Origin: an uncultured bacterium
Lineage (GTDB): Bacteria > Patescibacteriota > Saccharimonadia > UBA4664
DNA: 64,000 bases
NCBI GenBank assembly: GCA_963720265.1
Contig: CAVRET010000002.1
Coordinates: 931-64,930, forward strand
Reading direction: 5' to 3'
Shown here: in pieces, positions 41,443-63,420 of the stretch
Position numbering within the stretch: position 1 is the stretch's first letter
Layout: the number at the start of each line of letters is the position of its first letter
Made by a program: the position numbers and the translations under genes
The notes under the pieces: model-generated
Database searches by the model: none
Told to the model about the DNA's origin: nothing
What the model saw: the letters and a program-made list of their open reading frames with translations, nothing else

Positions 41443-41555
41443 CCGGCACCGTGCTACTTTCCCCTTTCGAGTATCATCGCCGCAGCGGGTCTTAACGGTG
41501 GTGTTCGGGATGGGAACCAGTGTATCCCCCGCGCCATAAGCACCGGGTTCGCGGG
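41443..41555 (-). rRNA. rrf: 5S ribosomal RNA
   Basis: Reverse complement reads ...GGUGCUUAUGGCGCGGGGGAUACACUGGUUCCCAUCCCGAACACCACCGUUAAGACCCGCUGCGGCGAUGAUACUCGAAAGGGGAAAGUAGCACGGUGCCGG, with a 5S helix I closure and loop C CCGAAC. Ends are approximate. Confidence 0.8.
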
Positions 41556-42058
41556 TCGCACACTATCCCGTAGGATATTTGGTGGACCAGCGAACTCGGC
41601 ACTCATGTGAGTGTCAGATTTTGTGAATGGGTGCTTCCTTGCGCGTATGCGCCGGTAGCCACAAACTGCTAGTCAAACCTTGCAAAAAAGTCAATCGACC
41701 GATTAGTACACCTCGGCTAAACACATTACTGTGCGTACACCTAGTGCCTATCAACCTGGTAGTCTTCCAGGGGTCTGATTGGGAAATCTAATCTTGAGGT
41801 AGGTTTCGCGCTTATATGCTTTCAGCGCTTATCCTGTCCGAACATAGCTACCCGACGATGCCCTTGGCAGAACAATCGGTACACCAGAGGTTCGTTCACT
41901 CCGGTCCTCTCGTACTAGGAGTCACTCCTCTCAAATTTCCTTACGCCCACACCAGATAGGGACCGAACTGTTTCACAACGTTCTGAACCCAGCTCGCGTA
42001 CCGCTTTAATGGGCGAACAGCCCAACCCTTGGGAGGTGCTTCCCCCCCAGGATGCGAC

Positions 42059-42502
42059 GAGCCGACATCGCTGTCGATTCCACAATTACTTGTGGCCCAG
42101 ACTATATCTTATCCCTGCTCTCCAGACTTAGGCTGATAGGCCATATCTATGAGTTGAGTCTTGCAGGGCTCGGCGTGTTAGCCCACTTTACGTGGACTCT
42201 CATCTTTCGAATCAGTCGTTACGGGGTCATCAGTCAATTTATACTTGAAGCAAGGTAACGCATATGGAGCAATCTGCTGCCAACTTCGAACAAAGCGTTC
42301 TTGCGATTGCCTTGTTTGCGTAGCGTACCATCGCCTAGCAGACTGCCTATTAGGACTTCCTGCTGAATTGACGTTAGACTTCCCACGGTATTGTCCTTGT
42401 TTGTATCATACCGAACATTCACCGTACAAACAATAGGATTTCACCGTTATAAGCCGAATTTTTGGTACAGGATTACTCCTGTAGCACCCCGATATTGATT
42501 CT
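42059..42502 (-). mobile_element. group I-like intron in 23S at the site homologous to E. coli 2499/2500 (GGCACCU|CGAUGUC), carrying a degenerate LAGLIDADG ORF
   Basis: Exon homology breaks after GAGCCGACATCG (plus coordinate 42058) and resumes at AGGTGCCAAAC (42503). The inserted RNA starts after an exon U and ends in G, consistent with group I splice sites. Confidence 0.65.
42234..42422 (-). pseudogene. LAGLIDADG homing endonuclease remnant (62 aa)
   Basis: Translation ...QEVLIGSLLGDGTLRKQGNRKNALFEV... contains a LAGLIDADG-type motif. It is too short to be an intact enzyme. Confidence 0.5.
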
Positions 42503-43183
42503 AGGTGCCAAACAGCGCCGTCTATGTGAACTATTGGGCGCTATAAGCCTGTTATCCCCAGGGTAACTTTTGTCCGTTGAGCGCTGCAGATTCCACATTC
42601 TAGATTGCAGCGGATCACTAACTCCTACTTTCGTACCTGCTCGGCTTGTAAGCCTCACAGTCAAGCTGGCTTCTGCGTTTGCACTATCGATACGATTTCC
42701 ATCCGTACCTAGCCAACCTTTGAACGCCTCCGTTACTCTTTAGGAGGCAACCGCCCCAGTTAAACTACCCACCAGACACTGTTCCAGTGCCGGAATTCGC
42801 GTACAAGGTAATCTAACAAGACAAGTCGCATGCATATGCGTGAGTTAGGAAAAAGTTTCCATTTGAACTTGTTCTACTTGTCTTGTCAGCATTGTCCGCA
42901 AATTGCGGCACTGGTTAGGACAAAGTTACAGCCAGGGTGGTATTTCACATTTCGGCTCCGCCAGAGCTAACGCTCTAACTTCACAGCCTCCCACCTATTC
43001 TACACAGGCTATAACTCGGCCCAATGCCAAGTTGTAGTAAAGCTCCATGGGGTCTTTCCGTCTTGGTGCGGGTAAACGGCATCTTTACCGCTATTGCAAT
43101 TTCACCGAGTCCCTCGTTGAGACAGTGCCCATATCGTTACGCCATTCGTGCGGGACGGAACTTACCCGCCAAGGAATTTCGCT

Positions 43184-43970
43184 TTATGTCAAGTTATTGG
43201 TATCACCAACCCGTCTGGAGATCCTTGGTTCTCGCTGACGGCTGCATGTCGCCATGCAGTACGGACTCTATCTTTACCGCTGTCGCGGCATCCGGCGTAT
43301 TAGCCTCTGAGGATTCTTATCAGATCCTGCCTGGATTTTTGCCTATTCATTGTTTGCGTAATCTCAGCTATTTCGATCAATCCCTCTGGGGTTTTATGCA
43401 CTCCAGAGTTGATTAACGAAACGCAGTGCGCAAATTTTTGAAAATCATGTTGCTTATGCGTTCGCAATTAATACAAGCTGAAGAAGGGTATGATCCTTTC
43501 GATCAAGTCTTCACGCCTTTGTACCACGTATCGATACATTGCTTCTGTATGGTTATCGTAACGTCGATTAATCACGACGGTACCCACTCCAAAGAAATGT
43601 TGCAATCGATGCAAGCACTCGATGCTCTTGGCACCTTGCGCAACTGCGAATTCATGGGCAACTTGGTAGCCAGTTCTGTATCCACGATGAGTTTTAGTAG
43701 TCAGTTGCCTGACAAACCCAATTGAGAAGCATCCTTCTCCGTCTACAAAACCAATAACCCAGCCAAGCTCGATAAGCCTTTCCTGCTGATTGTCCGCACC
43801 TGTCGCATTGTCAGTCATGTTGGCATTATACCGAACAAAGTCCGTATAATAAACATTGCTAGCGCAGGATTCTCGGGGTTTCCAGCATATAGCCAGATTT
43901 TCTCTCAAAACCTCTATGGCAAGAGGAAAACGAGAGGTGGTCTTACACCACACTAAGGCAGCTTGTGTTC
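43184..43970 (-). mobile_element. intron-like intervening sequence in 23S at the site homologous to E. coli ~1917 (GGUCCUAAGGU|AGCGAAAUUCC), encoding a LAGLIDADG endonuclease
   Basis: The exon sequence CAAGGAATTTCGCT ends at 43183 and ACCTTAGGAC resumes at 43971. The joined exons reproduce the universally conserved GGTCCTAAGGTAGCGAAATTCC. Confidence 0.65.
43468..43953 (-). CDS. LAGLIDADG homing endonuclease (intron-encoded)
   Basis: ...RLIELGWVIGFVDGEGCFSIGF... is a canonical single-motif LAGLIDADG. Possible start at the internal Met at 43818 (MTDNATG...). Confidence 0.8.
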   Translation of the reverse strand: MWCKTTSRFPLAIEVLRENLAICWKPRESCASNVYYTDFVRYNANMTDNATGADNQQERLIELGWVIGFVDGEGCFSIGFVRQLTTKTHRGYRTGYQVAHEFAVAQGAKSIECLHRLQHFFGVGTVVINRRYDNHTEAMYRYVVQRREDLIERIIPFFSLY

Positions 43971-61545: not shown

Positions 61546-61800
61546 GACTCTAACGAAGCCGGAACATTCGTTCGCCGGGTGCGCCCATTGGCGGCGCACC
61601 CGGCGGGCCACGCCTGAGCGCTCAATCGCAAGCATTGAGCTCCGAGGTCTGACCCGCCCTAGCTCTACAGAAATTTTTACTTACAAACAAAAAGCCCACC
61701 CAAAAATGCTGTCGAGAATGTTTGGTGACCGCAGGGAGGTCGCGAAGCGACAACGAAGCGAGTTTCGCAGACAGTATTTTTTAGGTGGCCTGATTGTTTC

Positions 61801-61831
61801 AAGCTTGAACCCTTAATCGTGCAGTGTAGAC
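61801..61831. repeat. 3' half of the pre-16S processing stem (complementary to 63561-63590)
   Basis: AGCTTGAACCCTTAATCGTGCAGTGTA is the reverse complement of TACACTGCACGATTAAGATTTCAAGCT found upstream of the 16S 5' end. Confidence 0.7.
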
Positions 61832-61954
61832 GTCGACCTGGAAGTTCCACAGTTGGCCGGCAGGATCACATCTCTTGCGAGCAGATCAACCATCCGAACC
61901 AAACTGGCCGAAAGTCAAAGCCTTCGGAACGCCTTACGGCGTCGCATCTCCCTA

Positions 61955-63420
61955 GAAAGGAGGTGATCCATCCGCACCTTCCGGTACGGATACCTTGTTA
62001 CGACTTAATCCCAGTTACCACCCCCACCTTAGGGCCTAGTGAAATAGGCACTTCGGGTGTTGGCGACTTCCGTGACTTGACGGGCGGTGTGTACAAGACC
62101 CGGGAACGTATTCAACGCGGTATGCTGACCTGCGTTTACTAGCGAATCCGACTTCATGGAGGCGAGTTGCAGCCTCCAATCCGAACTGAGACCGGTTTTG
62201 ATGCGATTAGCTCCCCCTCGCGGGTTCGCAGCGCGTTGTACCGGCCATTGTATGACGTGTGTGGCCCGAGGCGTAAGGGCCATGCCGACCTGACCTCATC
62301 CCCACCTTCCTCCCGATTACCTCGGGCAGTCTCGTATGAAAAGTACAACATACGATAAGGGTTGCGCTCGTTGCGGGACTTAACCCAACATCTCACGACA
62401 CGAGCTGACGACGGCCATGCAGCACCTGTCACTTGGCTCCTTGCGGCACTCCTCTGTTTCCAGTGGATCCCAAGGATGTCAAGCCTCGGTAAGGTTCTAC
62501 GCGTAGCGTCATATTAAACCACATCATCCTCTGCTTGTGCGGGTCCCCGTCAATTCCTTTGAGTTTTAGCCTTGCGGCCGTACTACCCAGGCGGCATACT
62601 TAACGCGTTAGCTTCGCCGCACAGGGGGTCGATACCCCATACGGCTAGTATGCATCGTTTACGGCGTGGACTACCAGGGTATCTAATCCTGTTCGCTCCC
62701 CACGCTTTCGTGCCTCAGTGTCAGGAGTGGCCCAGCAAGCTGCCTTCGCCATTGGTGTTCTTCGTAATATCTACGCATTTCACTGCTACACTACGAGTTC
62801 CACTTGCCTCTGCCGTCCTCTAGGCGCCCAGTATGAGATGCATCGATATGGTTGAGCCACACGATTTAACATCTCACTTAAACACCCACCTACGCACGCT
62901 TTACGCCCAGTGATTCCGGATAACGCTTGGACCCTACGTATTACCGCGGCTGCTGGCACGTAGTTAGCCGGTCCTTATTCATATGGTACCGTCATAATCT
63001 TCCCATATAAAAGCAGTTTACAATCCGAAGACCGTCATCCTGCACGCGGCGTTGCTCCATCAGACTTTCGTCCATTGTGGAAGATTCCTTACTGCTGCCT
63101 CCCGTAGGAGTCTGGGCCGTATCTCAGTCCCAGTGTGGCTGGTCAACCTCTCGATCCAGCTACCCATCGTCGCCTTGGTGGGCAATTACCCCGCCAACAA
63201 GCTAATGGGACGCAGGCCCCTCCCGAAGCGCATTACTGCTTTAACCTTGCGGTATTATGCGGTATTAGCCGACCTTTCGGCCAGTTATTCCCCACTTCGG
63301 GGTAGGTACCAACGTGTTACTCACCCGTCCGCCACTAGCTCCGAAGAGCTCGTTCGACTTGCATGTATTAGGCACGCCGCCAGCGTTCATCCTGAGCCAG
63401 GATCAAACTCTCCAAATATG
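61955..63420 (-). rRNA. rrs: 16S ribosomal RNA
   Basis: Plus strand holds the reverse complements of the 3' end GGATCACCTCCTTT (61956-61969), 1492R-region TACCTTGTTACGACTT, 515-region GTGCCAGCAGCCGCGGTAATAC and 27F-region AGAGTTTGATCCTGGCTCAG (63393-63412). Length ~1465 nt, no intron. Confidence 0.9.

Follow-up and report, generated by a model that had tools for sequence, protein, structure and literature searches.

The stretch of DNA analysed here, hereafter the window, spans 64,000 nt (positions 931 to 64,930 of contig CAVRET010000002.1, GenBank assembly GCA_963720265.1) and contains a ribosomal RNA (rRNA) locus in which the 16S gene lies far from those for 23S and 5S, and in which tRNA-Ile and tRNA-Ala point the opposite way. 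The host is a member of Candidatus Saccharimonadia (TM7/Patescibacteria, Candidate Phyla Radiation, CPR) with a 1.1-Mb genome. Elsewhere the window holds the housekeeping genes ftsZ, ftsA, hisS, relA/spoT, recJ, secD, priA, infB and rpsA, and these, together with the similarity of its Endonuclease Q (EndoQ) family protein to proteins of the same class, identify it as chromosomal DNA of a small-genome CPR bacterium of the TM7 lineage.

The rRNA genes were called with Rfam covariance models and the tRNAs with ARAGORN. The minus strand carries 16S rRNA (61956-63418, 1,463 nt; RF00177, 1511.8 bits), 23S rRNA (41682-46014, 4,333 nt; RF02541, 2427.7 bits, model positions 1-2925) and, 134 nt downstream of 23S, 5S rRNA (41441-41547; RF00001, 74 bits). 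On the plus strand, opposite to the rRNA genes, lie tRNA-Ile(GAT) at 47070-47146 and tRNA-Ala(TGC) at 47180-47256, the latter with a G3:U70 pair and an encoded CCA end. An earlier interpretation made from the letters of the window without database searches (the sequence-only reading) had given rRNA and tRNA coordinates that agree with these calls to ~11 nt; the separation of 16S from 23S-5S and the opposite direction of the tRNAs, both of which it reported, are real by Rfam and ARAGORN, and its identification of tRNA-Ala with a G3:U70 pair was borne out by the ARAGORN call and the sequence itself. The gap between 16S and 23S measures 15,941 nt (61956 to 46014) and exceeds the thresholds for unlinked genes of 1,500 bp (Brewer) and 2,000 bp (Lui), while tRNA-Ala is 14,699 nt away from 16S. 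By this distance, and by the relatives described below, the rRNA genes are truly unlinked, as the sequence-only reading had held. GC skew on the plus strand was negative throughout the window (-0.02 to -0.25) and the majority of genes lie on the minus strand, which is probably the leading strand; from the negative skew, the rRNA genes would be co-oriented with replication and the tRNA pair head-on to it.

Contigs of relatives were gathered by EndoQ orthologues and by a 17-mer from the 23S leader, and their collinearity with the window was assessed with blastn and tblastn. The EndoQ protein of the window is 65-83% identical to many proteins of Candidatus Saccharimonadia or Saccharimonadales metagenome-assembled genomes. 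Eight independent contigs (L086, L083, L084, L003, L103, L109, L119 and L149) show this order and strand layout in part or in full, namely 16S, the EndoQ/UvrD region, reversed tRNA-Ala and tRNA-Ile, and 23S-5S, and the tRNAs are reversed relative to the rRNA genes in all eight. Besides the window, L086 (EndoQ 73%, 16S 95.1% identical) has the full locus, which occupies 14 kb there with a 16S-23S gap of 8.3 kb: 16S (6841-8339), EndoQ (10001-11308) and UvrD (12245-13951) on the plus strand, tRNA-Ala (14003-14078) and tRNA-Ile (14100-14176) on the minus strand, and 23S (16637-20551) and 5S (20729-20836) again on the plus strand. L083, L084 and L003 (16S 98.5%, 93.9% and 94.1% identical to the window) run from 16S to EndoQ and on to the reversed tRNA-Ala and tRNA-Ile, and the L083 contig extends further into the 23S leader and the start of 23S. 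The gene upstream of 16S is also kept in all four contigs (L083, L084, L003 and L086). The scan of metagenomes with the 17-mer returned 67 loci, among them ~55 chance matches in unrelated contigs and 11 genuine 23S leaders; four of these 11 (L103, L109, L119 and L149) include the tRNAs within the locus, and in each of the four they are divergent from 23S.

No homologue of the two insertion sequence (IS) copies of the window was found in these relatives, and the same split with the same reversed tRNAs in IS-free genomes means that the layout predates this genome. An intact 16S-tRNA-23S operon in relatives at this locus, which the sequence-only reading had named as a refuting result, was not seen; they show the same split. 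The trait is thus kept in a coherent phylogenetic cluster of eight contigs, in four of which 16S is 93.9-98.5% identical to that of the window. Going further out, four more distant relatives (L087, L004, L157 and L158; EndoQ 65-68% identical) retain the EndoQ-UvrD pair; no rRNA genes were found within 10 kb of EndoQ in any of them, and none of the four showed an intermediate stage of the split. In the contig scan with EndoQ alignments, L003 was the only one with the arrangement among the matches listed, which were mostly from other phyla, and other Saccharibacteria loci among the matches listed (e.g. L004) had no rRNA near EndoQ. Judged from these alignments, the split locus with reversed tRNAs is best regarded as an inherited character of a subclade with a 16S divergence of at least ~6%.

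Each of the three parts of the locus is preceded by promoter-like sequences, and both rRNA parts are enclosed by stems of their own. The 16S leader (63554-63692, minus strand) contains a promoter-like TTGACT-17-TAGAGT at 63692-63664, of which TTGAC is kept in L083, L086 and L084, and a stem arm at 63554-63579 that pairs with a trailer arm at 61803-61828. An alignment of five species showed 26 pairs in this stem, five of them with compensatory changes on both sides; the whole 16S leader-trailer duplexes range from -108 to -125 kcal/mol, and the trailer is conserved to ~61804 in four relatives. The long 16S processing stem of the sequence-only reading therefore exists and shows covariation, but its leader arm is 63554-63579 and not 63561-63590. 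A stem of this kind is a classical substrate for excision of pre-16S rRNA, and the enzyme would probably be RNase III. The same leader contains the motif GGCTATTTATTTTG (63600-63615, minus strand), which is almost invariant in the five species aligned and may represent either a boxA-like element for antitermination or a processing signal of another kind.

The 23S leader (46015-46316, minus strand) has a promoter-like TTGACC-17-TATCTT at 46313-46285, with the -10-like hexamer 17 nt after TTGACC. In relatives, blastn homology of this leader starts at 46316-46281, and the alignment with L086 and L083 begins exactly at the shared TTGACC (46313-46308). Its stem is formed by a leader arm at 46007-46046 and a trailer arm at 41652-41691 (duplex -62.9 kcal/mol). 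On the plus strand, a promoter-like block CTTGCC-N-TG-n-TTAAAT upstream of tRNA-Ile (47005-47035) is kept in five of five species aligned. Separate leader-trailer stems and conserved promoter-like sites were both observed, and the blocks before the 16S, tRNA and 23S-5S units may function as promoters from which 16S, the tRNA pair and 23S-5S would be transcribed separately.

Reading along the minus strand from 16S, the locus comprises 16S with a trailer of ~150 nt, a gene for a 119-aa membrane protein, EndoQ, and the second IS copy, which is present in the window only; then a DUF1653-like region, UvrD, SRPBCC, SpoU, a variable stretch, tRNA-Ala and tRNA-Ile; and finally a conserved 120-aa open reading frame (ORF), the 23S leader, 23S, 5S and a SpoU-family gene. 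The sequence-only reading had listed a toxin-antitoxin pair, two IS copies, Nudix, GNAT, SpoU and UvrD-like genes and degraded genes in the interval, all of which are present, and had assigned them to a 14.7-kb accessory island. This description stands for the ~6 kb at 47.3-53.3 kb that are low in GC and mostly unmatched in relatives, but not for the whole 14.7 kb. The DUF1653-like region (to 56624), the UvrD-like helicase gene (54580-56277), SRPBCC (54102-54563) and the SpoU-family methyltransferase gene (53360-54097, syntenic in L083), all on the minus strand, form a block that is collinear with L083 from 56613 to 53400 at 63-70% aa identity. UvrD also lies downstream of EndoQ in L003, L086, L004, L087, L157 and L158. 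The EndoQ family gene itself (58411-59712, minus strand, 433 aa) is a core gene of the class and is syntenic with 16S in L003, L083, L084 and L086. Since UvrD, SRPBCC, SpoU and EndoQ are collinear with IS-free relatives, they are backbone genes and not cargo, contrary to what the sequence-only reading had proposed for the SpoU and UvrD-like genes.

Three further genes lie between EndoQ and 16S on the plus strand: a GNAT gene (Acetyltransf_3, from 59791), the gene for the 119-aa membrane protein (60332-60691), which is kept in relatives, and an S51 peptidase-like gene (60784-61545). At the other end of the interval, a hypothetical gene of 120 aa (46508-46870, minus strand) sits between tRNA-Ile and the 23S promoter-like site. 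No Pfam family matched it; it is the best-scoring frame, and its conservation in L103, L107 and L119 (70-72% aa identity) marks it as a real small gene beside 23S. In L083, L084 and L086, a gene of the metallo-beta-lactamase fold occupies the space between tRNA-Ile and 23S, and no remnant of it was found in the window.

Some observations on these neighbours can be added. The pair of EndoQ and the UvrD-like gene is kept across Saccharimonadia even where no rRNA genes are nearby, and many EndoQ proteins are annotated by JGI as DNA helicase II/PcrA. Two SpoU-family (RlmB/TrmH-like) genes for RNA 2'-O-methyltransferases are found at the rRNA locus, one at 53360-54097 (minus strand) and one at 40861-41370 (plus strand); the latter comes immediately after 5S, and its synteny extends to L109 and L119.

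The variable block (47257-53359) fills the space between the 3' end of tRNA-Ala and the SpoU gene. Its GC content is 0.51-0.52, while the backbone has 0.57 and the SpoU-UvrD block 0.61, and no counterpart of it was found in L083, L086, L084 and L003 except for a 45-nt remnant of the Nudix start in L083; L119 has the same Nudix-start remnant and a weak Nudix homologue (41.8% aa identity). The block encodes two hypothetical genes, a RelE/YafQ-type toxin (49122-49382) with a RelB/DinJ-like antitoxin upstream (49386-49658; match below the NCBIfam cut-off), a truncated ORF of 98 aa with an N-terminal membrane helix (49830-50126, plus strand), the first of the two IS copies, a Nudix gene (51317-51814), a second GNAT gene (51929-52369, plus strand), a hypothetical gene (52329-53060) and an HD-domain fragment (HD_3, profile positions 33-96 of 165; 53116 to ~53320, plus strand) that directly adjoins the SpoU gene on its 3' side. 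The stretch 3' of tRNA-Ala differs in each relative and measures 52 nt in L086, ~4 kb in L083 and ~6 kb in the window.

Both IS copies are 1,165 bp in the case of copy 1 (IS1, 50123-51287, plus strand) and an identical, inverted sequence in the case of copy 2 (IS2, 56653-57817, minus strand), so that two 100% identical elements in opposite orientation bracket 5.4 kb. The element has 18-nt terminal inverted repeats (CTGAACCACCCCACACTT) and a DDE transposase (50209-51270 in IS1) that scored above the cut-off for Pfam DDE_Tnp_1 and reached 72 bits with NCBIfam IS4 models vs a cut-off of 152, and by these matches the family is best described as IS4-like. IS2 is flanked by a perfect 9-bp target duplication (AGTGATAAC at 56644-56652 and 57818-57826). 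At its site the relatives are contiguous between EndoQ and UvrD, and the blastn blocks between window and relatives break at 56613 and 58413; the insertion of IS2 at this point is simple and recent. IS1 has no target duplication, as the sequence-only reading had noted, with GGGAAGTGT on one side and ATGCGGGTT on the other, and its flanks do not match those of IS2. In addition, its end supplies the stop codon of the truncated ORF at 49830-50126, the remainder of which is not found beyond IS1. This points to a deletion next to IS1, or to exchange with another genomic copy of the element, in either case limited to the variable block. Both copies are late additions that landed in the interval recently.

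Taken together, the locus most probably (at roughly 85%) represents the normal, inherited, unlinked rRNA layout of a Saccharimonadia subclade with three separate transcription units. The first would consist of 16S by itself, behind a promoter-like site of its own and excised by way of its long leader-trailer stem, the second of tRNA-Ile and tRNA-Ala on the opposite strand behind their own conserved promoter-like block, and the third of 23S-5S, which likewise has a leader-trailer stem and, ~300 nt upstream, a promoter-like site. The interval from 16S to the tRNAs contains ordinary backbone genes (EndoQ, UvrD, SRPBCC, SpoU and the small membrane protein) and, at the 3' end of tRNA-Ala, a plastic stretch; the ~6-kb low-GC block (RelBE, Nudix, GNAT and gene fragments) and the two recent IS copies are specific to this genome. 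As to the origin of the layout, an ancient inversion in the common ancestor is possible, e.g. a single one that turned the entire interval of a precursor ordered 16S-Ile-Ala ... 23S-5S; a search for inverted repeats flanking the tRNA pair as marks of an inversion gave only three short pairs of no obvious significance. Several points weigh against the interpretation as an inherited, three-unit layout. The promoters are consensus-like matches with conservation as their sole support, only L086 and the window are complete in one piece while the other relatives are partial, and L119 appears to have neither EndoQ nor UvrD in its interval, which makes the backbone content somewhat fluid. Both Saccharimonadia genomes in the survey of Lui et al. 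(PMC8172020) are operonic, which speaks against a trait of the whole class and indicates that the layout is specific to a subclade. Finally, the order of genes across the identical IS copies is unproven by the independent contigs described next.

Such an interval could be produced by misassembly, with a mis-join through rRNA, tRNA or IS repeats and a normal operon as the true locus, and indeed the short-read Logan contigs from run ERR11523669 break at the 3' end of 16S, inside tRNA-Ala, inside 23S and at both IS ends, i.e. at repeat or branch points. These independent contigs nevertheless cover three stretches of the locus and enter the rRNA and tRNA ends in the reported orientation: L002 runs from the SpoU gene through 5S into the 3' end of 23S (up to 41827), L089 from the last 29 nt of tRNA-Ala to 30 nt inside IS1 (47228-50151), and L001 from a point 30 nt into IS2 to one 28 nt into 16S (57789-61983). 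Exact-sequence look-ups of a 195-aa hypothetical protein and of UvrD returned no record, and the stretch between the IS copies is hence without support from an independent contig; its order as given is favoured by the target duplication, which fixes the joins around IS2, and by synteny with L083. With the same order and strands in at least eight independent assemblies from different metagenomes, and with the 120-aa gene and the 23S leader beside tRNA-Ile syntenic in L103 and L119, a mis-join is unlikely, and a normal operon hidden behind an artefact appears extremely improbable. The model put forward in the sequence-only reading, a canonical operon recently split by an island at the tRNA spacer and with its tRNAs flipped by a local IS-mediated inversion, draws on two identical inverted IS copies within the interval, on the truncation of an ORF by an IS1 that lacks a target duplication, and on the low-GC, mostly unmatched DNA that adjoins tRNA-Ala. 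However, the IS-free relatives, down to ~94% 16S identity where measured, share order, strands and reversed tRNAs; UvrD, SRPBCC and SpoU are collinear with them and point the same way with respect to EndoQ; and neither IS copy flanks the tRNAs. IS2 also keeps both halves of its own 9-bp duplication which, with the UvrD-SpoU segment in its ancestral orientation, means that no inversion between IS1 and IS2 has been fixed, although the pair could still turn over the 5.4 kb within a subpopulation. A recent IS-driven split is thus very improbable. The IS pair resembles a composite transposon only in that two identical copies bracket 5.4 kb of genes: the enclosed DNA is neither foreign as a whole nor inverted but collinear with L083 in the same orientation, most of the bracketed genes (UvrD, SRPBCC and SpoU) are in their ancestral place, and there is no target duplication around the pair as a whole or exchanged between the copies, IS2 having one of its own.

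Two further possibilities concern the plasticity of the interval and bear less on the split itself. The variable block at 47.3-53.3 kb could be an island that integrated site-specifically with the 3' end of tRNA-Ala as its attachment site, a proposal that concerns this block only and is compatible with an inherited, unlinked layout. The content right after the tRNA-Ala 3' end varies in every relative, and the block combines low GC with a toxin-antitoxin pair; against this, an integrase or recombinase domain was found in none of the tested ORFs, and nowhere in the window is the tRNA-Ala 3' end repeated directly over at least 12 nt. Neither hallmark of an integrative island, the integrase and the direct repeat of the tRNA end, was thus observed, and site-specific integration is unlikely. 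It is a good deal less probable still, though conceivable, that the reversed tRNA pair and the adjoining stretch form a conserved hotspot of recombination or integration, that the interval is more than a passive relic, and that the identical inverted IS pair makes the UvrD-SpoU segment invertible in the population. If the hotspot did exist, it would be a place where reduced episymbiont genomes gain and lose toxin-antitoxin modules, IS elements, and Nudix and GNAT genes.

The 23S gene itself is unusually built. Alignment to E. coli rrlH located six inserts, two of them large and the others expansions, and its length of 4,333 nt is due to the two intron-like inserts and several expansions. The larger, group I intron-like insert of 787 nt (43182-43968, minus strand) lies at E. 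coli 23S positions ~1931-1933 and contains a LAGLIDADG ORF (43818 to 43306) with an in-frame stop, which is 65% identical at the aa level to an intact 183-aa ORF in the 23S of L086. The other, of 432 nt (42071-42502, minus strand), lies at position ~2500, is likewise group I intron-like and retains just LLGDG from an ORF for a homing endonuclease. Matches to Rfam Intron_gpI scored 42.5 bits for the 432-nt insert and 27.5 bits for the other, below the gathering score of 50. The 432-nt insert is absent from the 23S of L086, L109 and L119; L109 is without both large inserts, and L086 has the 787-nt insert only. The insert sites, the presence/absence polymorphism and the LAGLIDADG ORF all support reading the two as introns, as far as can be judged from the alignments. 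The remaining inserts, expansions of 97 and 56 nt near E. coli positions 276-291 (45566-45733) and of 60 and 43 nt near 2188-2210 (42797-42921), are shared by L086 and are therefore lineage-typical expansions, not introns. Away from the rRNA genes, the part of the window with the highest GC (~0.61-0.62) holds an ORF of 1,544 aa (27474-32108, minus strand) that has no Pfam match and was also gene-called in Logan contig L002.

Unlinked 16S and 23S genes are widespread and phylogenetically clustered, and Patescibacteria form one of the unlinked clusters (Brewer et al. 2019/2020, bioRxiv 10.1101/705046); in circularised CPR genomes, 16S and 23S were unlinked in 27 of 34 (Lui et al. 2021, PMC8172020). 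The present locus corresponds to type D of the latter study ("unlinked by distance with intervening opposite-strand genes"): 16S and 23S share a strand at a distance of over 1,500 bp, and the S51 peptidase-like gene, the membrane-protein gene, two GNAT genes (one at 51929) and the tRNA-Ile/tRNA-Ala pair lie between them on the opposite strand. It also shares with the unlinked CPR genomes the adjacency of 23S and 5S, a small genome, a symbiont lineage and the retention of the trait in a phylogenetic cluster. It differs from them in that the spacer tRNAs stay in the interval, on the other strand and before 23S, and the subclade adds an unlinked case within Saccharimonadia. In Borrelia (B. afzelii and B. 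burgdorferi; PMC4370689), tRNA-Ile is transcribed in the opposite direction and precedes 23S-5S, with 16S located apart from 23S-5S as it is here. The Borrelia tRNA-Ala remains with 16S, and a tandem duplication of the 23S-5S cassette is present, whereas in the window tRNA-Ile and tRNA-Ala are turned round together and there is a single 23S with intron-like inserts. Closer to the host, Nanosynbacter lyticus TM7x, an oral member of the Saccharibacteria and of the same class, likewise has 16S and 23S separated by protein-coding genes, namely pyrD and a hypothetical one (PMC12424978), yet the 16S-23S amplicon is ~7 kb there, while the gap here is 15.9 kb (8.3 kb in L086) and holds EndoQ, UvrD and others. 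The locus is hence a mechanistically ordinary case of documented unlinked rRNA genes, and Borrelia provides a known case of a reversed tRNA-Ile ahead of 23S-5S.

No new biological question is opened by this locus, and its main value is practical. Due to the unlinked 16S-23S layout, amplicon methods that target the full operon (16S, internal transcribed spacer and 23S) will miss these organisms, and because short-read assemblies break in this region, their 16S genes will often be absent from bins. The view that the split was the work of IS elements is corrected. For the group itself, the finding means that in at least one soil and environmental subclade of Saccharimonadia the rRNA genes are unlinked, with a distance of 8-16 kb from 16S to 23S where both ends are seen and with intron-like inserts in 23S, and it provides a second example, after Borrelia, of spacer tRNAs that are kept in the interval on the other strand.

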